From: Deltaproteobacteria bacterium RBG_16_54_11
GTDB lineage: Bacteria; Desulfobacterota; B13-G15; RBG-16-54-18
Reading direction: 5' to 3'
Assembly (NCBI GenBank): GCA_001797905.1
Contig: MGQS01000109.1
Span: forward strand, 821-41,391
Length of the DNA stretch: 40,571 nucleotides
Part shown: piece after piece, positions 4,011 to 34,311 of the stretch
How the letters are laid out: each line of letters begins with the position of its first letter
Numbering within the stretch: position 1 is the first letter of the stretch
Position numbers and translations under genes: made by a program
The notes under the pieces: generated by a model
Told to the model about the DNA's origin: nothing
Seen by the model: only the letters and a program-made list of their open reading frames with translations
Database searches by the model: none

Positions 4011-5750
4011 ATGTTGGAATATGAGAAATACTGGCACTTTATAGACCTCCCGTTCAAGGTCTTTCCTTCCGGGGATACCTACTTCCCCTCGGCGACCCAT
4101 GAGGAAGCCAGGGCGAGGATATTTCAGGCCATACGGACCCGCAAGAGGATCATCCTGATTACGGGCAAGCCGGGCTCAGGGAAGACCACCCTCTGGAAGA
4201 AGATCAAGGGGGATCTGGAGCAACATCATATCCCCTTTGCCATGGGTGTTGCGGAAAACCCCATGGGCAATTTCTCCGAGATCATGAGGGAGATGGGTGA
4301 GAGCATGGGTCTTCCCACCTCCCGTGATAACGGAGAGCTCTTAGGGGCCCTCAGGGACAAGCTCAGGGATAACGTCAAGAGAGGGACAACAAATATATGG
4401 CTGATAGATGAATGCCAGGTGATAAAGGATACGGATATCTGGGAAAGACTCAGGTTGTTGACCAACTGGTCATTGAACGGCTCTCCGGCTCTGACCCTGT
4501 TCCTCCTGGGCCAGCCGGAGGTCATCCCCATCCTCCGTGAAAAGGAGGGCTTCTCCCAGAGGATAGGGGCCTACTATATCCTCGGCGCTCTCAGCTTGCA
4601 GGAGACTGGGGCGTATATCGAGTACCATCTCAAAAAGGTGAACTCTGCAAATTTAAGCATCTTCACCGAAGATTCGGTGCATAGGATATATCAATTGTCA
4701 GGGGGACTCCCGCGCAACATAAACCATATTTGCGACGCTGCCCTTCTGCTCGGTGCGATTCAAGGGAAGGAGTTTGTCGACGCGAGGATGGTGGAATCGG
4801 TTGCTGCGGAACGGGCGTCCATCAGTGGGGAGCAAGAGGTCGTATGGACGCCGATGCGGGAGGGCCTTATGGCAACCGATGCAACGGTAGATGAGCATAA
4901 TAATATATATGAGGAATTAGTTAAGACATTTGACAAATTCTATTACATTAAAAAGGGGGAGAGCCCCATAGATCTGGTGGAGAAGGAGCTCGAGCCGATT
5001 GTCCCTCAATTTATAAGGGCCGTGAAGACGGACAGGGGGCTCATGAAAAAGGCCTTATACGGTGAAGAGCCAGATGTCTATCTCTTGCAACACTGCGTGA
5101 ATGTGGCGGTTCAGGGTGCGAAGATAGGCATGGGAATGGGTTACAGCGAGGATGAATTGAAGCGATTGTCCCTGGCAGCCCTGATTCACGATATAGGGAT
5201 GGGGGATGTTCCTGAGCAGATATGGACCAAGAAGGGATCGCTCTCACCCTCCGAGATCGATGAGATGCGCAGGCACCCTGTGTATGGCTACGAGCGCCTC
5301 AAACCATTGGATGAGATCGCTACCATAGTGCTGCAGGAACATGAAAGGATGGACAGTTCAGGCTATCCTAATGGCGCGTTATGCGAAGATATTCATGAGT
5401 TCTCCTACATCATCGGGATCGCAGATATATATGACAGTCTCCTCCATACCCGTCCCTATCGGGATAAACGGTACTCCTCCTTTGAGGCGATCAAGGAGAT
5501 CGTGACGATGGAGAAGCGGCGATTCCCTGCCAGCGTGCTCAAGTCTTTGGTCGCTTACTTCCTTTTTCCGGTGGGGAGCCAGGTGGAGTTGAACAGCCGG
5601 GAGAAGGCCGAGGTGGTTGAGGAAAACAGGGCCAATCCGATGCGCCCGATAGTGAAGATCACCCACGATCAAGACAATCGGGAATATAAGAAATCCAGGA
5701 TTATAGACCTGGACAGGGATCAAAAATTCTTCATCGCGAGGAGTTTCTGA
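4011..5750 (+). CDS. Fusion protein: ExeA/GspA-like (PEP-CTERM-locus type) AAA+ ATPase N-terminal domain plus HD-GYP domain (putative c-di-GMP phosphodiesterase)
   Basis: 579 aa. The N-terminal half has the P-loop ITGKPGSGKTT and WLIDECQ (DEAQ-like Walker B). The C-terminal half has LIHDIGM, RRHPVYGYERL, QEHERMDSSGYPNG and IADIYDSLLHTRPYR. Confidence 0.85.
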   Translation: MLEYEKYWHFIDLPFKVFPSGDTYFPSATHEEARARIFQAIRTRKRIILITGKPGSGKTTLWKKIKGDLEQHHIPFAMGVAENPMGNFSEIMREMGESMGLPTSRDNGELLGALRDKLRDNVKRGTTNIWLIDECQVIKDTDIWERLRLLTNWSLNGSPALTLFLLGQPEVIPILREKEGFSQRIGAYYILGALSLQETGAYIEYHLKKVNSANLSIFTEDSVHRIYQLSGGLPRNINHICDAALLLGAIQGKEFVDARMVESVAAERASISGEQEVVWTPMREGLMATDATVDEHNNIYEELVKTFDKFYYIKKGESPIDLVEKELEPIVPQFIRAVKTDRGLMKKALYGEEPDVYLLQHCVNVAVQGAKIGMGMGYSEDELKRLSLAALIHDIGMGDVPEQIWTKKGSLSPSEIDEMRRHPVYGYERLKPLDEIATIVLQEHERMDSSGYPNGALCEDIHEFSYIIGIADIYDSLLHTRPYRDKRYSSFEAIKEIVTMEKRRFPASVLKSLVAYFLFPVGSQVELNSREKAEVVEENRANPMRPIVKITHDQDNREYKKSRIIDLDRDQKFFIARSF

Positions 5751-6559
5751 TGACAAGGATAAAAATCGGAGGGATTATATTTTTGTTGTCTTTTCTTTTC
5801 CTCGTTCCTCTCGTCCTTGCTGAAGAACTCTCTCCTAAGGCGGAAGAGCCGGCAGTTAAGGCGGAAGAGCCGGCAGTTAAGGTGGAAGAGCCGGCAGTTA
5901 AGGTGGAAGAGCCGGCTGTTAAGGCGGAAGAACCTGCTGCCAAGATAGCTGCTATAAAAGATGCCCGCGCCGTCTACACCGTGGGGGTGGGGGATGTGCT
6001 GACAATACGGCTCAGGGAGGGTGTCAAGCTGAGTGAGTACGATGCAACGGTCATGTCTACCGGCACGATCGTCATCTCCTTCATAGAGGTGGAGGCAGCA
6101 GGCCATACTATTCCCGAGATCAGGGAACAGGCCCAGAGGGAACTCGGCAAATACATTCGTGATTTCAGCGTGGACCTCATTCCAAGAGAATGGCGAGAAA
6201 AGAAGATCTTTGTCCTGGGCGAGGTAGAAAAGCCGGGGGTGTACAATTTCGCCGCAGGGATGACTGCCATGCAGGTACTCGCCTTGGCAGGGGGATATAA
6301 GGACTCCGCCCTGTTGAAGGATATGAGGATTATCAGAGGAAATCTCGATAATCCCGAGCTCATCCGGGTCAATCTGAAAGCGACGGCCAAGGGTAGAGAT
6401 GCGAAGGATGTTCTGCTTGCCCAGAATGACGTCATCTTCGTGCCCCGGAGCGCCATCGGCGACTGGAACGCCTTTATCAAGCTCTATATCCGTCCGACCG
6501 TTGAGGTTCTTTCCCTCCCTCTCAGTGGAGCGGCCACCATCCAGAGTTTCGGAAAGTGA
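5750..6559 (+). CDS. Polysaccharide export protein (Wza/Poly_export + SLBB type) with a repeat-containing N-terminal linker
   Basis: 269 aa. It has a signal peptide (MTRIKIGGIIFLLSFLFLVPLVLA), YTVGVGDVLTIRL (Poly_export-like) and ILGEVEKPGVYNF...AMQVLALAGG (SLBB-like). Its start overlaps the upstream stop (TGATG). Confidence 0.85.
   Translation: MTRIKIGGIIFLLSFLFLVPLVLAEELSPKAEEPAVKAEEPAVKVEEPAVKVEEPAVKAEEPAAKIAAIKDARAVYTVGVGDVLTIRLREGVKLSEYDATVMSTGTIVISFIEVEAAGHTIPEIREQAQRELGKYIRDFSVDLIPREWREKKIFVLGEVEKPGVYNFAAGMTAMQVLALAGGYKDSALLKDMRIIRGNLDNPELIRVNLKATAKGRDAKDVLLAQNDVIFVPRSAIGDWNAFIKLYIRPTVEVLSLPLSGAATIQSFGK
5840..5944 (+). repeat. In-frame 21-bp tandem repeat, 5 copies (GCGGAAGAGCCGGCAGTTAAG-like)
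   Basis: Read directly from the sequence. It encodes AEEPAVK-AEEPAVK-VEEPAVK-VEEPAVK-AEEPAAK. A degenerate copy (EELSPK) lies at 5822-5839. Confidence 0.95.
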
Positions 6560-8723: not shown

Positions 8724-10082
8724 TTGAATGTCAGCGTTGATCTATCCTTCCAATCTAGGTTAATCCTAACTTGCCTCTCCCTTGGTGCCGCCCTCCTTAT
8801 CATCTTACTGCCGCCTTCTTTTACCTTGATCGCCTTTTTGGCACTGGTGATTGCCGTCATATGTTTTATTTACCCGCAGGTCGCGCTCTACATTCTTATC
8901 GTTTCCATGCTCTTTTCACCGGAGGTGATGGTCGGGCAGACAGCTGCCAGAGAAGTCACCTTCAGGATGGATGATCTTTTGTTGATAATCATCGCTATTA
9001 CGTGGCTCGTCAGGGCCGCCATATACAAGGAATTGGCGGTCTTTCGCCTCACCCCCCTTCATACCCCTATTGCCCTCTACATGTCGGCTTCTCTCCTTGC
9101 TACCTTGATAGGCATGGTGATGGGAAAAGTGGGCGTTGCGACGGGTCTCTTCTTTAACCTGAAGATCTTTGAGTATTTTATCGTCTTCTTTATGGTGGTC
9201 AATTATGTGAGGGAGGAGAAGGAGATAAAGACCTTCGTTATCCTGATCCTCCTTGTGGCCCTCATGGTAAACCTCTATGCCCTCTATCAAGTCCCCTCGG
9301 GTGCAAGGGTGACTGCCCCCTTTGAGGGGGAGTTCGGCGAGCCCAATACGCTGGGCGGATACCTCATTCTCATCATCTCCGTGGCCCTTGCACTTTTCCT
9401 GCTCAGAGGCTTCGGCCCGCGGACCAATCTCCTGATTCCATTACTCGTTCTTTCGGGCGCCATCTTGATGTTTACCCAATCGAGGGGTTCCTGGATTGGT
9501 TTGATATTAATGAGCGCCCCCTTTATGCTCCTCTCGCCGAAGAGGGTCTTCTTTATCAGTGGGGCCATCTTTCTCATCCTTGCCCTTCCCTATATCGCAC
9601 CTAAGTCCACAAAAGAGAGATTTGCCGGCACCTTTCGTCCCGAACCTTTTTATGAACGCACCGAGAGGTTTATGGGGATGGGACTCGATCCCTCTGCATC
9701 GGAGAGGGTGGCCAGCTACAAGCAAGGATTCGAGAAGTGGAAGAAGCACCCCATTCTAGGGTACGGTGTTACCGGTGCGGGTTTCATTGACGGCCAATTT
9801 CTTCGAGTATTGCTGGAGACGGGAATTATAGGACTTGCCTTGTTTCTCTTTCTCTTGTGGCGCATGGCCCTCTTTTTGTGGAATACCTATTGGTCTGTGG
9901 ATGATCCATTTTTTAAGGCTCTCTACCTTGGGATGTTGGGCGCTTTGGCTGGTCTTATAGGACATTCAATCAGCGCGAGCTCCTTTATCGTAGTGAGGAT
10001 CATGGAGCCGTTTTGGTTCTTGATGGGACTTGCGGCTGCCTATCCCCTGATAAGGGGTGAGCTTACCTCTGCCGAAGAGTAA
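8724..10082 (+). CDS. O-antigen ligase/polymerase-like (Wzy_C domain) membrane protein
   Basis: 452 aa and polytopic (about 10+ hydrophobic segments). It contains MFTQSRGSWIGLIL, typical of the O-antigen ligase domain. It has a TTG start directly after the upstream TAA. Confidence 0.8.
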   Translation: MNVSVDLSFQSRLILTCLSLGAALLIILLPPSFTLIAFLALVIAVICFIYPQVALYILIVSMLFSPEVMVGQTAAREVTFRMDDLLLIIIAITWLVRAAIYKELAVFRLTPLHTPIALYMSASLLATLIGMVMGKVGVATGLFFNLKIFEYFIVFFMVVNYVREEKEIKTFVILILLVALMVNLYALYQVPSGARVTAPFEGEFGEPNTLGGYLILIISVALALFLLRGFGPRTNLLIPLLVLSGAILMFTQSRGSWIGLILMSAPFMLLSPKRVFFISGAIFLILALPYIAPKSTKERFAGTFRPEPFYERTERFMGMGLDPSASERVASYKQGFEKWKKHPILGYGVTGAGFIDGQFLRVLLETGIIGLALFLFLLWRMALFLWNTYWSVDDPFFKALYLGMLGALAGLIGHSISASSFIVVRIMEPFWFLMGLAAAYPLIRGELTSAEE

Positions 10083-24149: not shown

Positions 24150-24872
24150 ATGCACGGGAAAAAGGAAATAGTCAGATCTGCGCTGTTAAAGGTTTTCGGC
24201 CCCACCGAGGCAGAGGTAAAGGAGATCCTACAGGGCATCGGAGTGGGTATCGAAATCGCCTATCTCCTTTCCTTCCCTGAGATACACCTCAAGGTGGTTG
24301 TGCGAGGGGCAAACAAAGAGGAGGTTGAGGAGAGGCACAAACGCAGTGAGGCTGAAATTGCTAAGCGCCTGGGGATCTATCTATTCGGCCGAGGGGATGA
24401 GGTTATGGAGGGTGTCGTCGGGAGGCTCTTGAGAGAAAAAAAGGCGACCATTGCCGTGGCGGAGTCGTGCACCGGAGGGCTCATCGCCCACCGCATCACC
24501 GAGATACCGGGGAGCTCCGCTTACTTCCTCCACGGGGTGGTGGCCTATAGCAACCAGGCAAAGGAAGCGCTTCTCGGGGTTCCGCTCGCGATCTTAGAGC
24601 GCTATGGGCCGGTGAGCAAAGAGGTTGCCGAACGAATGGCAACAGGGGTGAGGGAAAGCAGCAAGGCCACGATAGGGCTGGCCACCACCGGCATTGCCGG
24701 ACCGGCAGGCGGGACCCCTGCGACCCCTGTGGGCAGGGTCTTTGTCGCCCTGGCGACGGAGGCACTACGCGAGGTTAAACAATACGATTTATGCGACGAT
24801 CGGCATAGGATAAAGCTTATGGCGTCAGAGCTCGCCCTGGATAGGGTGAGAAGGTATCTTTTAGGCATTTGA
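24150..24872 (+). CDS. cinA: CinA-family protein: KH-like linker plus PncC (nicotinamide-nucleotide amidohydrolase) domain, lacking the N-terminal MoCF domain
   Basis: 240 aa with LLKVFGPTEAEVKEIL...FPEIHLKV, then IAVAESCTGGLIAHRITEIPGSSAYF...TTGIAGPAGGT. Confidence 0.85.
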   Translation: MHGKKEIVRSALLKVFGPTEAEVKEILQGIGVGIEIAYLLSFPEIHLKVVVRGANKEEVEERHKRSEAEIAKRLGIYLFGRGDEVMEGVVGRLLREKKATIAVAESCTGGLIAHRITEIPGSSAYFLHGVVAYSNQAKEALLGVPLAILERYGPVSKEVAERMATGVRESSKATIGLATTGIAGPAGGTPATPVGRVFVALATEALREVKQYDLCDDRHRIKLMASELALDRVRRYLLGI

Positions 24873-25509: not shown

Positions 25510-25819
25510 GAGCCCTCGCCCCCTTTTAGGTGATCATTGCAACGCTGATTCACCAGTTTTTGCTTATGGTCTCGCGCCTCACCAATAACGATATAATTAT
25601 ATGGATACTCCGTGCAAAGGGCAAGGGAGATCTGCCGCTACAATGGTTACCGTAAAGGCGTTCCCGCCCGGAGCTAAAAACAAAGCCTTTCAAGCCTCAG
25701 TCATACTGATATCCCCGCCCCACGCACTGCGAACATAATGAGGCGCTTCCCCCGCAGCCTATATATAGTGCAGACCTTTAAGTGTGATCTTCTAAATACC
25801 TCAAAAAAGTCAAAATTTC

Positions 25820-25859
25820 ATAACAAAAAACTAACAGAAAAATAATACTAAATTAACAA
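25820..25859 (+). promoter_or_regulatory. Pho-box-like array: four 11-bp-phased direct repeats
   Basis: The array reads ATAACAA-AAAA-CTAACAG-AAAA-ATAATAC-TAAA-TTAACAA. The 16-mer TAACAAAAAACTAACA (25821-25836) is identical to 30602-30617 upstream of pstS. It lies about 60 bp upstream of ATG 25920. Confidence 0.5.
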
Positions 25860-25919
25860 TTAAAACTTATACATATATCAATATATGAGAAAAAATAAGA
25901 AGAAAAGCGAGGTACAGTT

Positions 25920-27806
25920 ATGATACGAGCAGATTTACATGCGCATTCGAAATATTCGGAACATCCTTCCGAGTGGTTCCTTCAGCGCTTAGGCGCCCAG
26001 GAGTCCTATGTCGAACCGGAGTTCATATACAGGACTGCAAAGGCCAGAAACATGGATCTGGTCACCATCACCGACCATAACAGGATAGATGGTTCAATTA
26101 TTCTGCAAGGCTTGCATCCTGAAGACACCTTCACCGGCGTAGAATCCACCGTATATTTCCCTGAGGACGGCTGCAAGGTGCACATCCTCGTCTATGGTTT
26201 AAGCGAGGACCAGTTCAGCTGCATACAAAAGATAAGAACCGATATTTACGAGATGCGGGCTTTTCTCAAGCAAGAGGATCTGGCCCATGCCGTTGCTCAC
26301 GCCACGTATGCTGTGAACGGTAAGATATCTATAGAACATCTGGAGAAACTGATACTGCTTTTTGATGTTTTTGAAGGTATAAACGGAGGCAGAGAAGAGA
26401 TCCATAATACCGTCTGGCTAAAAACGCTATCCTCTCTCACCCCTGAACATATCGCCAGGCTTTATGAAAGGTACAGGATTGAACCCTTCAGCGATACACC
26501 GTGGATAAAAGGATTTACCGGCGGGTCCGACGACCATGCCGGACTTTTTAATGGACAAAGCTATACCACGGCCGAGATCAAAACAGCACACGTAAAGGAT
26601 TTCCTCGATTGCATAAAGAACAAAGCAAGCATGCCGGCAGGAAGACACAACGATTACCAGTCGCTTGTTTTTATGGTCTACAAGGTAGCCTACGACTTTT
26701 CCAAACAGAAGAATGCAGGCAAGATATCGGGCACCATATTAAGCCAGCTGTTCAATCTTATCTTTGAGAAGCAGAAATTGGGGTTGAAAGATAGACTTAA
26801 GATAAAAAGACTGAAATCGATAGCGAAAAAGGACCCCAATTCTGAGATATATCTGCTGCTTTATGAGCTTGTAGATGAATTAAGGCCCGATAAAAAACTT
26901 ACCATCAACGAAAAACTCAATATAGTGCATGATAAGATAGCGAAAATAGCAGATGCGTTTTTGTATAGCTTTTTCAACTCATGTACAAATGATCTTAGAA
27001 CCGGAGACCTCATTGGCATTATAAAGAACATATCTGCGGCAATCCCGGGGATTTTCCTGTCCATTCCGTTTTTCAGCTCGCTGAACCATATGCATGATAA
27101 CCGTGATCTTCTGGAAGAATTGGGCAGGAGGTTTGCTATCGGCAGTTCCAAAAAAACAAAATCGGTGCTCTGGTTTACCGACACCTTGGTAGATCTTAAC
27201 GTTGTATCGACGACGCTCCAGCAGCTGGGGTGGCTCGCTCACAACAAGAACCTTGACCTGAAAATAGTGACCAGCCTCAGAGAAGAGGAAATGCACGCCT
27301 CGTTGTCGCCCAATATCGTAAACCTCCCTCATATATATTGCATCAAGATACCCGACTACGAATCATATGAGCTTAAGATACCGTCCATACTGAAGTCGCT
27401 GGAGATTATATACGATTTGAAGCCAGATGAGATCTATATATCGACACCAGGCCCTATAGGTCTGTTGGCGCTTCTTGCATCGAAACTACTCAAGGTGAAA
27501 TGCACCGGCATATATCATACTGATTTCGCCGCGGAGGTTTCAAAGATAATAGAAGACGAATCTGTCAGCAGACTTTTGGGGAACGTCGTTAAATGGTTCT
27601 ACGACAAGATGGATGAGATAGGAGTCTTCACGGAAGAGTATATCAAGCTACTCGGGGACAGGGGGTTTAATACCCGCAAGATGAGGATATTTAATAAAGG
27701 CATAGATTCGGCCCTGTTCTATCCGCTCAGCACCAAGGGTGTAGAGGTTGCCAAGAAGAAAGAAATACCCGACGGGATAAACCTGCTGTATGCCGGCAGG
27801 GTCTGA
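25920..27806 (+). CDS. PHP-domain phosphoesterase fused to a GT4 glycosyltransferase N-terminal domain; the ORF stops where the GT-B C-terminal domain should begin (probable truncation/pseudogene)
   Basis: 628 aa with IRADLHAHSKYSEHPSEW...VTITDHNRIDG (PHP) and, from about residue 415, KSVLWFTDTLVDLNVVS...KGIDSALFYP...INLLYAGRV-stop. The codons after the TGA still read KDKNIDFLLDVYRELATH, continuing the GT4 GRxSxEK-type motif, then TAA. Confidence 0.75.
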   Translation: MIRADLHAHSKYSEHPSEWFLQRLGAQESYVEPEFIYRTAKARNMDLVTITDHNRIDGSIILQGLHPEDTFTGVESTVYFPEDGCKVHILVYGLSEDQFSCIQKIRTDIYEMRAFLKQEDLAHAVAHATYAVNGKISIEHLEKLILLFDVFEGINGGREEIHNTVWLKTLSSLTPEHIARLYERYRIEPFSDTPWIKGFTGGSDDHAGLFNGQSYTTAEIKTAHVKDFLDCIKNKASMPAGRHNDYQSLVFMVYKVAYDFSKQKNAGKISGTILSQLFNLIFEKQKLGLKDRLKIKRLKSIAKKDPNSEIYLLLYELVDELRPDKKLTINEKLNIVHDKIAKIADAFLYSFFNSCTNDLRTGDLIGIIKNISAAIPGIFLSIPFFSSLNHMHDNRDLLEELGRRFAIGSSKKTKSVLWFTDTLVDLNVVSTTLQQLGWLAHNKNLDLKIVTSLREEEMHASLSPNIVNLPHIYCIKIPDYESYELKIPSILKSLEIIYDLKPDEIYISTPGPIGLLALLASKLLKVKCTGIYHTDFAAEVSKIIEDESVSRLLGNVVKWFYDKMDEIGVFTEEYIKLLGDRGFNTRKMRIFNKGIDSALFYPLSTKGVEVAKKKEIPDGINLLYAGRV

Positions 27807-27986
27807 AAAGACAAGAATATCGATTTCTTGCTTGATGTTTACAGAGAATTAGCCACGCATTAAGATAGTTTTCACTGCTGGTACAAGCACGAGTCTTTGC
27901 CCTTAGGCATTTCTCTATACTAAAAATTTGCAAAAGCTTGATTATCTGTTAGAATAAGAACAAATATTTTTATTACGGAGACCGTC

Positions 27987-28673
27987 ATGCCTGGCGAAAA
28001 GATCCTGGTGGTTGACGACGAGGAAGACATCCGTGAGTTGGTGAGGTATAACCTCGCCCGAGAAGGATATCAGGTAACCACCGTTGGCTCAGGGGAAGAG
28101 GCGCTGAAACAGGCCGGCGCAAAGCTGCCCAACCTCATTGTCTTGGATCTGATGCTGCCGGGGATTGATGGTTTTGATGTCTGCCGACAACTAAAGAGCG
28201 ATCCCCGCACGGCTCATATCCCCATTGTGATGCTCACGGTCAAGGGGGAGGAATCCGACATTGTGGTCGGCCTGGAGCTGGGGGCAGATGACTACATTAC
28301 CAAGCCCTTTAGCCCCAAGGTGCTCCTGGCGAGGTTAAAGGCCGTTCTGCGGCGGAGAGAGAAGGAGCCCATCGGCGAATCCGATGTCATGACTATCGGT
28401 GATTTGACGATCCATCCCGGTCGCCATGAGGTGTTGGTACAGGGGAAACCCGTCAAGCTCACATCCACTGAATTTCGTATTTTGCATCTCATGGCCCGAA
28501 AACCAGGTTGGGTCTTCACCCGTTTTCAGATCGTCGATGCCGCCCGCGGGGAAAATATCGCGGTGACCGATCGATCGGTGGACTTTCACATTACTTCCCT
28601 GCGGCGAAAGCTTGGTCCCTGTAGTGATTATATCGAGACCGTTTGGGGGGTAGGGTACCGCTTTAAGGAATAA
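27987..28673 (+). CDS. phoB: OmpR/PhoB-family response regulator (phosphate regulon type)
   Basis: 228 aa with KILVVDDEEDIREL, LIVLDLMLPGIDG, GADDYITKPFSPKVLLARLKAVLRR and a C-terminal winged helix ending GVGYRF. It is adjacent to a PhoR-like kinase and pstSCAB-phoU. Confidence 0.85.
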   Translation: MPGEKILVVDDEEDIRELVRYNLAREGYQVTTVGSGEEALKQAGAKLPNLIVLDLMLPGIDGFDVCRQLKSDPRTAHIPIVMLTVKGEESDIVVGLELGADDYITKPFSPKVLLARLKAVLRRREKEPIGESDVMTIGDLTIHPGRHEVLVQGKPVKLTSTEFRILHLMARKPGWVFTRFQIVDAARGENIAVTDRSVDFHITSLRRKLGPCSDYIETVWGVGYRFKE

Positions 28674-28677
28674 CCAT

Positions 28678-30453
28678 ATGCGCAGAAAAAGGCTCCTTTG
28701 GAAACTCTATCCGTCTTATGTGGTGATTATCCTGATCTCCATTATTACCGTGGGGATCTATGTCTCAACGGCATTGAAAAATTTTTATCTGCACAAAACA
28801 GCCGATGATCTTGAAGTTAGGGCGCGTCTTATCGAGAGAGAGGCCTCGGCGACCTTCAGCAAAGAGAACAAAAAATCACTCGATGCACTGTGCAAAACAC
28901 TCGGCAAGGCCGCTTCGACCCGCATAACCCTGATCCTTCCTTCCGGTGAGGTCGTGGGTGACTCCGACGAAGACCCACAGGCGATGGAGAACCACGCCGG
29001 CCGCCCGGAGGTAAAAAAAGCCCTTGCAGGACAAACAGGTATCTCCACCCGATATAGCGTAACCCTTCAGAAAGAGATGATGTACGTAGCAATACCTGTC
29101 AAAAAAGAGGGAGGTATTATTGTCGGGACGGTCAGGGTATCTATCCCTATTATTGCAATCGATACGGCCCTGCGCGCTATCTATGGGAAGATCGCCCTCT
29201 TTGGGGTATTTATGATCATCTTGACTGCGGCGCTAAGCCTCTTTATTGCCAGACGTATCAGCCAACCCATAGGAGAGCTAAAACGGGGCGCACAGCGTTT
29301 TGCCCAAGGAGACCTTACGCACAGGCTCTTTGTCGCCGGATCCAGGGAGCTGGGCGAGCTTACTGAGGCGCTGAACAAGATGGCTCTACAGCTTGGTGAA
29401 AAGATCCGCATGATCACCGAGCACCGCAATGAGTTAGAGACCATCCTTTCCGCTATGAGAGAGGGGGTGTTGGCTTGTGATGCCGATGAGCGCATTATCA
29501 CGCTCAATCAAGCCGCCGGATCTCTTCTGGGGATCGATCTCTCAACCGCAAAGGGGCACACGGTTCAAGAGATAGTCAGAAACGCCGATCTCCAACGCTT
29601 CGTCGGCGGGATTCCTTTAGGTCAGGGGGAGGTGGCAGCTGAGATCATCCTCCATGGCCCCGAGAAAAAATTCCTCCAGCTCAGCGGTACGGTGCTGCGT
29701 GATAGCGAAGGGAAGGGTATCGGCGCCCTTGTTGTTCTCAGTGACACAACCAGACTTCGGCATCTCGAGAACATAAGGCGTGAGTTCGTGGCCAACGTCT
29801 CTCATGAGCTCAAGACACCCATCACCTCTATCAAGGGGTATGTCGAGACGTTGCAAGAAGGGGCCATCGACGACAAAGGGAATGCCCGAAAGTTCCTCGA
29901 GATCATTTTCAAGCAAGCAGATCTTTTACATGCGCTCGTCGATGATTTGTTGAGCCTCTCCAAGATTGAACAGGAAGCTGAACGGGAAGAGGCGCACTTG
30001 GCCGAGGAACCGGTGATGCCAGTCATTGAAGCTGCTATTGCCGCATATGAGACAAGGGCCCGTGATCGCCGCATACAGGTGACCTTGCACTGTACCGATG
30101 ATGTCGTTGTTATGGCCAACGCCCAACTGCTTGAGCAGGCAGTGGGGAATCTTCTTGATAATGCCATTAAATACAGTGAGCCTGGAGGTACGGTAGAGAT
30201 TGAAGTAACCAAAAACAAGCACGAAGTTACCATAACAGTCGGCGATTGTGGATCAGGCATAGCCCCGGAGCACCTCCCCCGGCTTTTCGAACGGTTCTAC
30301 CGGGTGGACAAGGGGAGGAGCCGAGAGCTGGGGGGCACCGGGCTGGGCCTCGCCATTGTTAAACATATCATCCAGGCCCATGGTGGCGATGCCACCGTGG
30401 AAAGCACCCCCGGCAAGGGAAGTGCATTTACCCTACACCTGCCAAGGGCCTGA
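28678..30453 (+). CDS. phoR: PhoR-like sensor histidine kinase (2 TM + extracytoplasmic domain, HAMP, PAS, HisKA, HATPase_c)
   Basis: 591 aa with FVANVSHELKTPITSIKGYVETL (H-box), DNAIKYS (N-box) and GGTGLGLAIVKHIIQAHGG (G2-box). Confidence 0.8.
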   Translation: MRRKRLLWKLYPSYVVIILISIITVGIYVSTALKNFYLHKTADDLEVRARLIEREASATFSKENKKSLDALCKTLGKAASTRITLILPSGEVVGDSDEDPQAMENHAGRPEVKKALAGQTGISTRYSVTLQKEMMYVAIPVKKEGGIIVGTVRVSIPIIAIDTALRAIYGKIALFGVFMIILTAALSLFIARRISQPIGELKRGAQRFAQGDLTHRLFVAGSRELGELTEALNKMALQLGEKIRMITEHRNELETILSAMREGVLACDADERIITLNQAAGSLLGIDLSTAKGHTVQEIVRNADLQRFVGGIPLGQGEVAAEIILHGPEKKFLQLSGTVLRDSEGKGIGALVVLSDTTRLRHLENIRREFVANVSHELKTPITSIKGYVETLQEGAIDDKGNARKFLEIIFKQADLLHALVDDLLSLSKIEQEAEREEAHLAEEPVMPVIEAAIAAYETRARDRRIQVTLHCTDDVVVMANAQLLEQAVGNLLDNAIKYSEPGGTVEIEVTKNKHEVTITVGDCGSGIAPEHLPRLFERFYRVDKGRSRELGGTGLGLAIVKHIIQAHGGDATVESTPGKGSAFTLHLPRA

Positions 30454-30589: not shown

Positions 30590-30618
30590 CTGACACTTTT
30601 CTAACAAAAAACTAACAA
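30590..30618 (+). promoter_or_regulatory. Pho-box-like element upstream of pstS
   Basis: CTGACAC-TTTT-CTAACAA-AAAA-CTAACAA: three 7-bp direct repeats with 4-bp A/T spacers (11-bp phasing). The E. coli Pho box is CTGTCAT-A(A/T)A(A/T)-CTGTCA(C/T). It ends 33 bp before ATG 30651, with RBS AAGGAGG at 30638-30644. Confidence 0.6.
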
Positions 30619-30650
30619 TTATTGTTAAACTTAACTCAAGGAGGAAAAAA

Positions 30651-31685
30651 ATGAAGGTAAAAGGTCTTGCTATGGCTGTTTTTGCTTTGCTCTTGCTTAT
30701 GGCAGGCTCAGTCCAGGTAGGGAATGTGGTCATCACGGGAATGCTGAGCCCTGCCTGGTCTCAGGAGAAGATCATCAAGATAGACGGGTCGAGCACGGTC
30801 TATCCTATTACCGAAGCTGTTGCCGAGGAGTTTCAGAAGGCGAAGAAAGGAACGGTAAAGGTAACCGTCGGCATCTCTGGAACAGGTGGAGGTTTTAAAA
30901 AATTTTCCCGAGGAGAGACTGATATCTCTGATGCATCGAGACCCATTACCCAAAAGGAGATCGAGGCCTGCAAAGAGGCCGGCATCCAGTATATTGAGCT
31001 TCCCGTTGCCTATGACGGCTTGGCCGTGATGGTCAACCCGAAGAACAGCTGGGTGACCTCCATGACGGTAGCACAACTTAAGCGGATTTGGGAACCGGCG
31101 GCAGAGGGAAAAGTGACGAAATGGAGCTACGTAAACTCTGCCTGGCCCGATGTAGCTCTCAAGCTCTACGGTCCAGGGGTTGACTCGGGGACCTTCGACT
31201 ATTTTACCGAGGCCATCGTCGGAAAGTCCAGGGCAAGCAGAGGCGATTTTACCGCCAGCGAAGACGACAATGTACTGGTACAGGGGGTCGCCTCAGACAA
31301 GGGTGGCCTGGGGTTTTTCGGCTATGCCTACTATGCAGAAAACTCCGATAAGCTGAAATTAGTAGCGATTGACGGCGGGAAGGGCCCCGTTCTACCTTCG
31401 GAGAAGACAGTGATGGATGGGACTTACTATCCTCTCTCCAGGCCGATCTTTATCTATGTCAATAAGAAATCCGCCCAGAGGCCTGAGGTAAAAGAGTTCG
31501 TAGACTTTTATCTAAAAAATGCACCGACCTTGGTGAAACAGGTAAAGTACATTCCCCTTCCGGATATGGCCTATAAACTTGCTGCGGAAAGATTCTCAAA
31601 AAGGGTAACGGGCACCGTCTTCGGGGGTGAAGCCAAGGTGGGAGTGAAGATCGAGGATCTCCTTAAATTAGAGAAAAAGAAATAA
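30651..31685 (+). CDS. pstS: Phosphate ABC transporter substrate-binding protein PstS
   Basis: 344 aa with a signal peptide, [30 protein letters not shown] and [11 protein letters not shown]. Confidence 0.9.
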
Positions 31686-31692
31686 GGCACCC

Positions 31693-32583
31693 GTGAAACG
31701 TAAGATATCCACCAAGATTAAAGAGAGGGGCATTGAGGGGCTGCTGCTCCTCAGTGCCCTTTCTTCTATTATGATCACCCTGAGCATCGTCTTTATCCTT
31801 TTCTATGAGGCCCTGGGATTTTTTAAAGACGTATCCGTATGGGAGTTTCTTACCGGAAGACGGTGGACCCCCCTCTTTGCCAACCCCAAATTTGGCATAC
31901 TGCCCCTGGTGACTGGTACTCTCTTGGTCACCGGGATTGCGGTAGCAGTGGCCTTGCCAGTGGGGCTCATTGTTGCCGTCTATCTCAGTGAATACGCCCC
32001 CTTCAAAATCAAGGAGGTGGTCAAGCCTATCCTGGAGCTCCTGGCCGCTGTCCCCACCGTCGTCTACGGTTATTTTGCCCTGCTCTTCCTCACACCCATC
32101 TTACAGCAGTTGATCACGACGCTCTCCGGATTCAATGCCTTAAGCCCTGGGATCATCATGGGCATCATGATCATTCCGTATGTCAGTTCGGTGAGTGAGG
32201 ATGCCATGAAGGCAGTTCCCATGCATATCAGAGAAGGGTCTTATGCAATGGGGGCCACAAAGTTTCAGACTGCTTTCAAAGTGGTCATCCCTGCTGCCTT
32301 TTCCGGGATTGCCGCCGCCTTTATTGTAGGCATATCAAGGGCCATTGGAGAAACGATGGTTGTGGCCATTGCCGCGGGCATGATGCCCAATTTCACGTTT
32401 AATCCCATTGAACCTATCCAGACCTTGACTGCGTATATCGTCGGCGTCAGTTTAGGAGACGTTCCCCATGGTACCATCGAATATAAGACCATCTTTGCTG
32501 CGGGGATTACGCTATTTCTGATGACCCTCGTGCTGAATATTCTTGGGTTCTGGTTCAGGAAAAGGATTAGGGAGGTCTATTAG
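31693..32583 (+). CDS. pstC: Phosphate ABC transporter permease PstC
   Basis: 296 aa with 6 TM-like segments and the EAA-loop region EDAMKAVPMHIREGSYAMGATKFQT. GTG start. Confidence 0.9.
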   Translation: MKRKISTKIKERGIEGLLLLSALSSIMITLSIVFILFYEALGFFKDVSVWEFLTGRRWTPLFANPKFGILPLVTGTLLVTGIAVAVALPVGLIVAVYLSEYAPFKIKEVVKPILELLAAVPTVVYGYFALLFLTPILQQLITTLSGFNALSPGIIMGIMIIPYVSSVSEDAMKAVPMHIREGSYAMGATKFQTAFKVVIPAAFSGIAAAFIVGISRAIGETMVVAIAAGMMPNFTFNPIEPIQTLTAYIVGVSLGDVPHGTIEYKTIFAAGITLFLMTLVLNILGFWFRKRIREVY

Positions 32584-32585
32584 AT

Positions 32586-33518
32586 ATGCAAGCAACTGAG
32601 CAGCCTGAAATCCTCGAAATGAGGAAGAGGATCTCCTCGAACAAGCTTCGGGACCACATCTTTTGGATCGTCGGATTATTCTCAACCCTCATCGGCTTCG
32701 CCCTCCTTTTTACGCTCATCATCGATCTCTTCATTGATGGTTTCCCGAGGCTGAGCTGGCACTTTTTTACCTCCTACCCATCCCGATTTCCGGAACAGGC
32801 AGGGATTCTTTCCGCCTGGGTTGGAACGATACTGGTGATGATGGTGACTGCAGCCGCAGCCGTTCCTTTAGGGATTGCCGCCGGGATATACTTGGAGGAA
32901 TATGGAAAGAAGAATTGGCTAACCCACCTCATTGAGATCAATATGAATAATCTTGCCGGGGTCCCTTCCATCATCTATGGCCTCTTGGCCCTCTGGTTGT
33001 TCGTCTATTTCTTAAAATTTGGAGAGAGTATTCTGACCGGTGGGTTAACGCTGGGTCTCTTGATCCTCCCCATGGTAGTGATTGCCACACGGGAATCCAT
33101 CCGAGCGATCCCCAATTCTATTCGCGAGGCATCCTATGCCCTGGGTGCTTCGAAATGGCAGACCATCAAGGATCACATCATCCCTTATTCCGTTGGCGGA
33201 ATCCTGACAGGCATGATCATTGGGCTGTCCAGGGCCATTGGAGAGACAGCCCCCATTATTACGGTAGGCGCCCTAACCTTCATCGCCTTTCTTCCTTCAT
33301 CACCTGTCACTTCAGGGTTCCCTTTTCTTTCTTTCAAGTGGCTCCTTGACCCCTTTACCGTCATGCCCATCCAGATGTTCAATTGGATATCCAGGCCACA
33401 GACCGCATTCCACCTGAATGCGGCAGCTGCCGGGATCGTCCTCCTGGTGATGACCCTCGTGATGAACGGATTTGCTATCTATGTCAGATACCGGTTCAGA
33501 AAGAGAATAAAGTGGTAA
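32586..33518 (+). CDS. pstA: Phosphate ABC transporter permease PstA
   Basis: 310 aa with [25 protein letters not shown] and [12 protein letters not shown]. Confidence 0.9.
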
Positions 33519-33519
33519 C

Positions 33520-34311
33520 ATGGCAGGATTGGTGCCGGGTATGATCCCTGAAAAACTTAAAGCTGAAGTCAAAGGCCTCAATTTTTATTACAACGATCTT
33601 AAAGCCCTTAAGGACATCCATCTGCCGATAGCCAATAAACTGATTACCGCCTTGATCGGGCCTTCCGGCTGCGGCAAAACAACCTATCTTCGCTGTTTTA
33701 ATCGCATGCACGACCTTTATCCGAACAATCGTTACGAGGGTGAGATCATCTTATACCCTGAGCGAGTTAATATCGTCGACCCGCGGATAGATCCTATCGA
33801 GGTGCGGATGCGGATCAGTATGGTTTTTCAGAAACCCAACCCCTTTCCCAAAACGGTCTTTGAAAATGTTGCCTATGGCCTGAGGGTCAGGGGGGTAAAT
33901 AAAAAATGCCTCTTAGATGAAAAAGTGGAAAAGGCATTGAAACAGGCAGCCCTCTGGGATGAGGTGAAAGACAGGATAGATGACCTCGCTTTCAATCTTT
34001 CCGGGGGGCAGCAGCAACGCCTCTGTATCGCGAGGGCGCTGGCGACCAATCCCGAGATCCTCCTCTTCGATGAACCTACCTCTGCCCTTGATCCTACGGC
34101 TACAGCAAAGATCGAAGAACTGATCCTACAACTCAAAAAAGAAGTGACCATTATTATTGTTACGCACAATATGCAACAAGCAGCACGTGTCTCTGATTAT
34201 ACGGCGTTCATGTATCTGGGAGAGATCATCGAGTTCGATAGAACGGATAAGGTCTTTACTCGACCATCGCAGAAGTTAACCGAGGAATACATAACGGGCC
34301 GCTTCGGCTAA
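33520..34311 (+). CDS. pstB: Phosphate ABC transporter ATP-binding protein PstB
   Basis: 263 aa with [37 protein letters not shown] and a C-terminus ending YITGRFG. Confidence 0.95.

Follow-up and report, generated by a model that had tools for sequence, protein, structure and literature searches.

A selectively maintained deletion allele of a PHP-GT4 fusion gene behind a Pho-box-like operator, next to phoBR-pst in an uncultured Thermodesulfobacteriota lineage

The subject of this work is a shortened gene that lies beside the phosphate genes phoBR-pst in a 40,571-nucleotide stretch of DNA (hereafter the window; contig MGQS01000109.1 of assembly GCA_001797905.1, Deltaproteobacteria bacterium RBG_16_54_11), where it occupies positions 25920..27806 of the plus strand, on which its parts and remnant, its operator, the phoB promoter region, phoBR and the repeats before pstS also lie. 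The gene, which consists of 628 codons and a TGA in the list of open reading frames and whose product is the 100% cluster P0001, encodes a phosphoesterase domain of the PHP fold, a helical linker and, of a GT4 glycosyltransferase, only the N-terminal half. The allele is short and young, fixed in its population and maintained by selection, and belongs to a family of PHP-GT4 fusions; taken together, the structural and evolutionary claims made for it are well supported. The best explanation of the locus as a whole, to which we assign a probability of roughly 0.6, is that the gene is a selected deletion allele of a bifunctional gene that would be controlled by PhoB and whose intact product would remodel membrane lipids. 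The lipid-remodelling mechanism taken by itself, which is reasoned from several indirect lines, is held at a little below even odds.

The three-part architecture had been proposed in a first-pass annotation made from the letters alone, and is borne out by Pfam and Foldseek. The PHP domain (residues 1-245; 25920..26654) is delimited by alignments and by Foldseek matches to PHP structures; the all-helical linker (residues 246-410; 26655..27149) by the secondary structure of an AlphaFold model, in which residues 246-405 are entirely helical; and the acceptor-side, N-terminal Rossmann domain of the GT4 (GT-N; residues 411-628; 27150..27803) by PF13439, which Pfam places at residues 444-597 of the 628-residue protein. 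Profile searches scarcely register the PHP domain: the N-terminus matches the NCBIfam CehA/McbA family at 2.6e-6, below the family cutoff, PF02811 (PHP) is undetected there at E <= 0.1, Pfam returns no metallophosphoesterase match in the protein, and a sequence search of the PDB with PHP plus linker yields no match even at E <= 10. With the AlphaFold model, which covers residues 1-410 (pLDDT 81.5), as the query, Foldseek retrieves the PHP domain of RNase AM (7ug9) at E 1.6e-6, together with BAD_1165 (3e0f), Cv1693 (2yb1) and the PHP domains of Pol III alpha, in matches that are modest (template-modelling (TM) score 0.61 on the target, identity 12-16%). The His, Asp and Glu residues that alignments show to be invariant in the family are all kept (D5, H7, H9, H15, D52, H53, E75, H88, H127, D204, D205 and H206), and none of the PHP positions conserved family-wide carries a window-unique change, G44N being found also in the intact P0002. 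Within the linker, a conserved hydrophobic segment kinked by Pro and Gly (residues 364-382; 27009-27065; Kyte-Doolittle 1.79 over 19 residues) is a candidate membrane-association element; linker residues P376, G377, F379, P383 and F384 are conserved, and the PGIFLSxPFF segment is present in the window protein. In the GT half, H533 and most GT-N motifs remain intact, and the sole window-unique substitution at a position conserved family-wide is G428V (GTT at 27201-27203), which alters a Gly with 95% conservation among long forms. The absence of the donor-binding domain, also claimed in the first pass, holds: Pfam finds no C-terminal PF00534 in the window protein and no GT-like sequence between the truncated gene and the phoB start at 27987, and the C-domain is deleted relative to the orthologous locus L001. 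Of the elements of a complete GT-B enzyme (PF13439, and PF00534 with D/E-x7-E), the window protein thus has PF13439 only. The G+C content of the gene and its upstream region (25800-27900) is 38-47%, against 50-62% in the flanking genes.

Full-length homologs, which had been expected at about 800 residues, do exist. The search of a large database returned 1769 matches, nearly all of 785-835 residues and carrying PF00534, and the closest of these full-length proteins have 798-799 residues and 89-90% identity. Orthologs are 795-800 residues long and 79-90% identical to the window protein, and the nearest genome-derived relative (86% identity) comes from a metagenome-assembled genome of an uncultured Thermodesulfobacteriota. 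The GT half of the long forms is a typical retaining GT4, that of an ortholog model being structurally closest to BshA, MshA, PimA, sucrose-phosphate synthase (SPS) and GlgM. The window shares its upstream synteny (heptosyltransferases, methyltransferase, DegT, CinA and Sua5, on the minus strand) with loci L001, L002, L005, L088 and L089, where the downstream order is PHP-GT4 (795-798 residues), Porin_5, in some cases STAS and metallo-beta-lactamase genes, and then phoB, phoR and pst. Judged by this comparison, the ancestral locus had the order PHP-GT4, porin gene, phoBR-pstSCAB-phoU, and its gene product of ~798 residues joined a predicted metal-dependent phosphoesterase of the PHP type, through a linker that is helical and in part hydrophobic, to a complete retaining GT4 with its two Rossmann domains. 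Relatives are encoded in at least 589 stretches of a collection of species genomes, in Thermodesulfobacteriota, Deferribacteres, Spirochaetes, Cloacimonadota, Fibrobacterota, KSB1, Acidobacteriota and other phyla, and Malonomonas rubra, Desulfuromusa kysingii and Seleniivibrio woodruffii are cultured carriers of the gene; the family is annotated only as 'glycosyltransferase', and a literature search found no paper on a PHP-GT or PlcP-Agt fusion. Two further observations concern the upstream block. The CinA protein (24150-24872 in the window) has 234-253 residues in the window, L001 and L005, with KH and PncC-like parts only, and 416 residues with an N-terminal MoCF_biosynth domain in the more distant L088, a second domain difference in the same syntenic block. 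The split Sua5 gene calls in L090, L093 and L096 are an artefact of the gene caller; in L090, the one of these that was compared, the DNA is identical to that of the window.

The lesion itself can be mapped closely. Homology to the intact GT gene ends at 27849-27860, and the blastn alignment with L001 breaks off at 27860 and is taken up again at 27922, in the region upstream of phoB; the 61 nt at 27861-27921 replace at least 2456 bp of L001, comprising the GT C-domain, the Porin_5 gene and its terminator. The deletion junction (27849..27921, from blastn and sequence comparison) is followed by the conserved phoB promoter region (27922..27986; TTGCAA-16 nt-TAGAAT at 27928-27955, with a TG extension) and by the presumed regulator pair (27987..30453), phoB (27987-28673; Response_reg and Trans_reg_C in Pfam) and phoR (28678-30453; HAMP-PAS-HisKA-HATPase). 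The strong porin terminator of L001 (11436-11458) is absent from the window, in which no terminator was found between the truncated gene and phoB, and no repeats able to mediate the deletion were found at the breakpoints. Upstream of the junction, the TGA at 27804-27806 falls on the Ser codon of the GRVS motif and is, as the first pass had it, a single-base change of TCA, the codon read in orthologs L001, L005 and L086 and in the near-identical L090-L095. The 18 in-frame codons behind it (KDKNIDFLLDVYRELATH) are homologous to the ortholog sequence KDKNIAFLLDVYRELIKH and form, with a TAA created at the junction (27861-27863), a remnant of the first strand-helix of the lost C-domain (27807..27863). 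This remnant is translated in the 647-residue allele P0121 (628 + 1 + 18), which falls into the same 90% cluster as the window protein and a second 628-residue member, P0122.

A chimeric contig joining the middle of the GT to DNA upstream of phoB, or a sequencing error read as TGA, would be a natural suspicion for a window that stems from a metagenome-type assembly and has a 61-nt filler of no identifiable source, and an assembly artefact was one of two options offered in the first pass. The chance of it is negligible: all eight further contigs that carry the deletion (L090-L097, from eight samples and three data sources, JGI, ENA and Logan) are identical to the window in the junction, the filler and the 124-nt distance to phoB, and the TGA recurs in L096 and L097. 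The other six contigs (L090-L095) have TCA, and because TCA and TGA are thus polymorphic on a shared junction, the TGA is later than the deletion. Its distribution is discordant with relatedness, the window being 4 nt from L090 and 58 nt from L096, and recurrence or recombination must therefore be invoked. At two of the 4 gene sites that distinguish the window from L090-L095, lying 33 bp apart (27772 C/T and TGA/TCA), the window agrees with L096 and L097, which suggests a short gene-conversion tract between sub-lineages within 27767-27806 or recurrent mutation. The primary lesion is the deletion of at least 2.4 kb, the TGA being a secondary change in a dispensable 19-codon tail, and in an uncultured Thermodesulfobacteriota lineage the deletion allele has gone to fixation in a natural population. 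Selenocysteine insertion or read-through at the TGA was rejected in view of the lack of a stable structure (z -0.44) or Rfam match, the Ser of the homologs, and the TCA/TGA polymorphism.

With the GT domain went the neighbouring Porin_5 (PF16930) gene, which is found at 9944-11383 in L001, 10816-12222 in L005 and 10728-12005 in L088 and is absent from the window. The lost protein was probably a phosphate-starvation outer-membrane porin, since a Pho-box-like site lies upstream of the porin gene in L005 (10522) and a weaker variant in L001 (~9721-9737). The porin was lost independently in the window lineage and in locus L004 (see below), so that its loss may itself have been selected; the selected event may have been porin loss (through a phage receptor or Pi-rich conditions, for example, Pi being inorganic phosphate), with the GT domain as collateral, or the reverse.

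The central question is whether the truncated gene still serves its bearer. Around the junction, the window and L096 differ at 7 positions in 250 bp, which is the gene average, with differences on both sides of the junction and inside the filler; the deletion is therefore older than the split between window and L096, and all 58 differences between them arose after it. The same evenness rules out that recombination recently carried the junction into a diverged background. Across these post-deletion differences, with 19.5 nonsynonymous (Nd) and 36.5 synonymous (Sd) changes, the ratio of nonsynonymous to synonymous rates (dN/dS) is 0.14 (binomial p = 8e-12 against neutrality), with regional values of 0.17 for PHP, 0.11 for the linker and 0.13 for GT-N, and the value against the intact L086 (0.13) is at the same level. 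Ratios of lineage-specific nonsynonymous (N) to synonymous (S) changes are 0.32-0.58 on truncated and 0.32-0.64 on intact branches, and not one of the nine deletion-bearing contigs contains a frameshift or internal stop within the gene. These patterns indicate that the remnant has been under strong purifying selection since the deletion, in all three retained regions and with the strength seen in intact orthologs.

It is against this record that one must judge the view, also put forward in the first pass, of a recently inactivated remnant: a dead pseudogene struck by deletion and nonsense codon, whose reading frame persists merely for lack of time. It is true that a GT-B enzyme cannot work without its donor-binding domain, that a second lesion (the TGA) and G428V, at a near-invariant Gly, have followed, and that the window branch has a slightly elevated N/S in GT-N. 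Such a pseudogene is nevertheless unlikely, given the post-deletion dN/dS of 0.14 with GT-N included, the nine undisrupted contigs and the conserved operator described below; moreover, the TGA trims only a 19-residue tail beyond the end set by the deletion, and short forms with the same boundary are a common, conserved architecture. What marks a pseudogene is therefore present in one respect, disruption relative to orthologs by deletion and TGA, while relaxed selection and a decaying operator are not observed.

The last of these arguments rests on the recurrence of short forms in the family. L004 (P0004; 640 residues, 87% identity) also lacks both the GT C-domain and the porin. Its breakpoints differ from those of the window on both sides (GT codon ~618, a 152-nt filler), and in the tree it falls into a clade with the intact L005 and L087 (99.4% bootstrap) from which the window is excluded, which makes its loss an independent one; a single ancestral deletion for the window and L004 is ruled out by the same phylogeny and breakpoints. 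No convincing match to the 61-nt or the 152-nt filler was found in the deleted regions of L001, L005 and L088, in the rest of the window or in the loci; the two have in common only the 9-nt TAGTTTTCA, the other similarity being one 15-nt inverted AT-rich match to L001, and they are probably diverged porin-phoB intergenic DNA. The distant P0042 (L098 3723-5606, GCA_900174595.1; 54% identity) ends at about residue 603 and continues in frame into a tail that resembles the middle of an ArsC/low-molecular-weight (LMW)-phosphatase gene, and in some relatives, L012 among them, such a gene is the immediate downstream neighbour of the family gene. A long-to-short transition has probably taken place there too, and P0042 may represent a third independent deletion or a chimeric assembly.

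A search with PHP and linker alone against 1.84 billion representatives yielded 1422 matches, and in the best 150 of these 1422 clusters protein length is bimodal: 73 are long, 43 end at positions equivalent to P0003 residues 560-617, and 3 fall within 661-739. Among these best 150, natural short forms are thus about a third of the family's representative clusters. Their C-terminal tails are non-homologous, so that they cannot be contig-end fragments, and the divergent short form P0126 (L099) is a complete internal gene, with genes for a PhoB homolog (48% identity) and a PhoR-like kinase directly behind it. A rough neighbour-joining tree makes the short forms polyphyletic; its root is a long form, and no fewer than ~25 changes are required. 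Short forms retain the PHP positions that are invariant in long forms at 98% (34/35 positions reach at least 90%); for G428 the figure is only 34% and for H533 only 37%. These two residues we take to be those of the Gly-rich loop and of the HTD motif in the GT4 N-domain, involved in catalysis and donor binding in related enzymes (PimA, MshA). With G428V, the window can therefore be said to have taken the first step in a decay that older short forms display, and its intact H533 and largely intact GT-N motifs are what a young member of the class would be expected to have. The window protein, which ends at residue 628 (647 in the TCA allele), lies within the short-form boundary of ~560-646 in P0003 numbering, and its dN/dS of 0.14 agrees with the purifying selection expected of that class. 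The first pass had allowed that homologs ending at the same point would signal a genuinely shorter architecture; short forms are indeed frequent, but the window gene is not one of long standing, being derived from a long form and converging on the recurrent short architecture. In locus L100, a 511-residue protein of the PAP2 (lipid phosphate phosphatase) family is encoded at 4238-5773, two genes downstream of the short form P0133 and on the opposite strand, and a TonB-dependent receptor gene lies upstream of P0133.

The continued selection on GT-N could also be read as that of a split glycosyltransferase of the Alg13/Alg14 kind, in which a separate protein supplies the donor domain in trans and activity persists. 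This is very improbable. There is no gene for a C-domain alone in the window, where the sole tblastn match is a complete GT of the lipopolysaccharide (LPS) cluster at 27% identity, none adjoins the short forms in L099 or L100, and the donor-loop residue G428 and H533 decay in short forms, the window having already reached G428V.

Just upstream of a likely -10 element of the gene lies a Pho-box-like operator (25815..25870) with four repeats in 11-bp phase (TAACA at 25821, TAACA at 25832, TAATA at 25843 and TAACA at 25854), and matching repeats (30591..30622; TGACA at 30591, TAACA at 30602, TAACA at 30613, again in 11-bp phase) precede pstS (30651-31685). Direct repeats at an 11-bp phase are the architecture of PhoB and PhoP operators; here at least two such repeats with an 11-bp period stand near a -10 element and also at pstS. 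That the site recognized in the first pass is real can be seen from the count of TAACA-N6-TAACA (<=1 mismatch) in the window: 7 against 1.35 expected, a number reached by none of 100 shuffles, with 5/7 of the matches in the two clusters upstream of the PHP-GT4 gene and of pstS. The exact 16-mer TAACAAAAAACTAACA occurs in the 40.5-kb window only at the operator and 35-50 nt upstream of pstS, a pairing that is repeated in L001, L004 and L005, and in L088 with one mismatch at the pstS site. Across 8 orthologous loci the 55-nt operator block hardly varies, also where the coding sequences have diverged to a dS above 1, and all deletion-bearing contigs have it with 0-1 mismatches. These comparisons support the placement of the PHP-GT4 gene in a putative Pho regulon.

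The association with phosphate genes extends beyond the window, whose pst genes were identified as pstS-pstC-pstA-pstB-phoU. Across 80 family loci from other phyla, genes of the pst transporter lie within <=10 kb in ~10/80, and any pst/phoU-type gene is present in ~17/80, from several phyla and including a recurrent fusion of a PhoU domain with a kinase; by an estimate from genome sizes, a random gene would be near pst in <1% of cases. The link of homologs with pst/pho genes that the first pass had anticipated is thereby confirmed. In L007, L011, L029, L030, L043 and L051 (Spirochaetia, FCPU426, Ignavibacteria), the long form is adjoined by a three-gene set comprising a PhoU-domain and APH/choline-kinase-like fusion (548 residues), a RimK-type ATP-grasp protein and a 388-residue protein without family match. 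Two features of the pst region of the window stand apart. At 27946-27952, CTGTTAG (the complement of CTAACAG) is a single inverted repeat core overlapping the phoB -10, and could be a half-site for autoregulation by PhoB. In its DNA the segment at 30706-33646 (pstS after ~codon 18, pstC, pstA and the 5' part of pstB) resembles neither L004 nor L001, and the proteins it encodes are only 29-48% identical (PstS of 344 versus 275-276 residues), whereas its flanks (phoBR, the pstS promoter, 3' pstB and phoU) are 80-84% identical in DNA and up to 92-95% in protein; on this evidence, a xenolog seems to have replaced the high-affinity phosphate transporter cassette in the window lineage, and L090 shares the replacement.

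In the proposed mechanism, phospho-PhoB would bind the four 11-bp-phased TAACA repeats under Pi limitation and activate transcription. With the terminator lost, transcription would probably read through into phoBR, which now lies directly 3' of a Pho-box promoter, and this could add positive feedback. The shortened protein would bind no sugar donor and would have lost transferase activity, while still working as a membrane-associated phosphoesterase, in which GT-N and linker would now bind the substrate or the membrane or act as a scaffold. The phosphoesterase of intact orthologs would most likely make diacylglycerol from phosphatidate or phospholipids, freeing phosphate, and the GT4 half would then glycosylate the diacylglycerol to a phosphorus-free glycolipid; the long form would thus be a fused, non-homologous analogue of PlcP-Agt. 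The PlcP-Agt operons, which carry Pho boxes, direct the synthesis of phosphorus-free glycolipids (PMC4796936), and in Desulfovibrio alaskensis an Agt homolog is needed for monoglycosyldiacylglycerol (MGDG) and glycuronic acid diacylglycerol (GADG) under Pi limitation (PMC5193443). Genes of the ornithine-lipid pathway, OlsB-like (PF13444 and NF052554 at 4.7e-37) and OlsA-like (PF01553 and NF052553 at 4e-40), both below the equivalog cutoffs, are divergently adjacent to the family gene in 9 loci (8 Deferribacteres, 1 Elusimicrobiales). The best NCBIfam equivalog matches of the GT half, far below cutoff, include GlcNAc-PG synthase and alpha-monoglucosyl-diacylglycerol (DAG) synthase. The lipid model is favoured because of the shared Pho box, the pst/phoU synteny, the olsBA adjacency, the hydrophobic linker segment and the PlcP-Agt precedent.

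Two other functions can be envisaged for the same protein. GT-phosphatase fusions are known in compatible-solute pathways, and by the logic of SPS and its phosphatase the GT4 would glycosylate a phosphorylated soluble acceptor and the PHP domain would dephosphorylate the product to a glycoside or compatible solute, with no lipids involved. The GT half, best matched by the structures of BshA, MshA, SPS and GlgM, and the PHP neighbours, which are phosphatases of small molecules and nucleotides, would suit such a scheme. It is unlikely all the same: forms that have repeatedly shed the GT donor domain and strictly keep the invariant PHP residues would be left with a product phosphatase that has no substrate, Pho-box control and pst/phoU/olsBA neighbours indicate phosphate economy rather than osmoadaptation, and the scheme must also contend with the conserved hydrophobic linker segment. 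Alternatively, the PHP domain might scavenge nucleotides under Pi starvation, freeing phosphate from adenosine 3',5'-bisphosphate (pAp), RNA 5' ends or UDP, with the GT half separate or merely regulatory. Here one may point to the closest PHP structures, RNase AM and the 3',5'-nucleoside bisphosphate phosphatase Cv1693, to the name 'phosphoesterase TrpH' given to one allele by JGI, and to the fact that the PHP module outlives GT function. Yet the structural likeness is modest, the strict fusion to linker and GT-N, kept even in short forms, and the hydrophobic segment are left unexplained, and the olsBA and PAP2 neighbours point towards lipids, so that nucleotide scavenging is improbable. Two other kinds of neighbour occur beside long forms: a radical-SAM protein (~424 residues, PF04055, CxxxCxxC), encoded ~60 nt 3' on the same strand in 13 loci (L020, L025, L034, L036-L038, L042, L052, L066, L067, L071, L074 and L085; Deferribacteres, Desulfuromonadales, FCPU426, Latescibacterota), and a ~570-residue protein without Pfam or NCBIfam match, directly 3' in 10 loci (L013, L022, L039, L046, L048, L049, L053, L056, L079 and L083; Fibrobacterota, Spirochaetota, Victivallales, Malonomonas).

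Several points weigh against the reading of the gene as a selected deletion allele with a role in lipid remodelling. With respect to selection, the test draws on 56 substitutions and takes the junction to be inherited from a common ancestor; on the window branch GT-N shows 8 N against 4-9 S changes, where PHP shows 2 N against 17-18 S, a weak hint, in small numbers, of relaxed constraint on GT-N; the ~25 losses of the neighbour-joining tree are inflated by tree error; and some single short representatives could be recent pseudogenes. With respect to function, the closest solved PHP structures (RNase AM, the pAp phosphatase Cv1693 and Pol III PHP) are nucleotide-directed and none is a lipid phosphoesterase, the structural neighbours of the GT half (BshA, MshA, SPS, GlgM) use soluble, often phosphorylated acceptors, and the OlsBA adjacency, confined mostly to one phylum (8 Deferribacteres and 1 Elusimicrobiales), amounts to few independent observations. 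The function of the family is a predicted one, and both PhoB binding and read-through into phoBR are putative.

Should the lipid reading hold for long and short forms alike, the conserved core of PHP, linker and GT-N would be a new Pho-regulated membrane-lipid phosphoesterase of the PHP fold, similar to a phospholipase C or a phosphatidate phosphatase. We regard this joint reading as tentative, and rather unlikely in its full extent. If it were true, the GT4 donor domain would be an optional add-on that is repeatedly shed, the half-GT domain would have been exapted as a lipid- or membrane-binding module, and the long form would be a one-protein PlcP-Agt analogue making phosphorus-free glycolipids in many anaerobic and candidate phyla. 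Exchanging phospholipids for lipids without phosphorus is one of the major ways in which microbes respond when phosphate is scarce, and the remodelling enzymes are known mainly from Proteobacteria (PlcP, Agt, OlsBA/OlsF). The family is predicted to be a strong candidate for the missing remodelling enzyme of anaerobic and uncultured lineages, with PHP doing the job of PlcP. Apart from function, the window locus offers a clean natural experiment in domain loss, in which the breakpoints are mapped, the deletion is fixed in the population and the purifying selection that followed can be measured, and it carries a caution for annotation: a 3'-truncated gene with a premature stop need not be a pseudogene.

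Among known systems, the closest parallel is the PlcP-Agt pair of Sinorhizobium, Agrobacterium, SAR11, Phaeobacter and Pseudomonas (PMC4796936, PMC8528852), in which, as in PHP-GT4, a phosphoesterase is combined with a GT4 behind a Pho-box-type operator. A further resemblance is that members of the PHP-GT4 family have pst/pho genes as genomic neighbours, in some phyla also genes for ornithine lipids, and that their carriers belong to the same broad phylum as Desulfovibrio alaskensis G20, which replaces phospholipids with MGDG and GADG (Agt being Dde_3613; PMC5193443). Unlike PlcP, which is a calcineurin-like metallophosphoesterase, the predicted phosphoesterase of this family has the PHP fold and falls outside the PlcP family; unlike the separate genes of the PlcP-Agt operons, PHP and GT4 are fused through a 160-residue helical linker; and the window copy lacks the GT donor domain. 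With RNase AM/TrpH (7ug9, 9etk), Cv1693 (2yb1), BAD_1165 (3e0f) and Pol III alpha, the PHP domain shares the distorted-barrel fold and, as in enzymes of the PHP superfamily, the motif set DxHxH, H, E, H, H, DxH that is typical of a trinuclear metal site; it differs from these relatives in its fusion to helical linker and GT4 and in its low identity (12-16%). The long forms resemble retaining GT4 enzymes (BshA, MshA, PimA, alMGS-type, GlcNAc-PG synthase) in their two-Rossmann GT-B fold, N-terminal Gly-rich loop and HTD motif, and in the D/E-x7-E motif of their C-domain (DTFGMVVLE), but every NCBIfam equivalog score falls far short of its cutoff, which places them in none of these named families; in natural short forms, as in the window protein, the entire C-domain is missing. 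In this last respect the short forms are akin to the scaffold domains of pseudoenzymes, a half-GT being kept under selection while the catalytic G428 and H533 decay. Unlike older pseudoenzyme remnants, the transition in the window is young, and its breakpoints can still be mapped.

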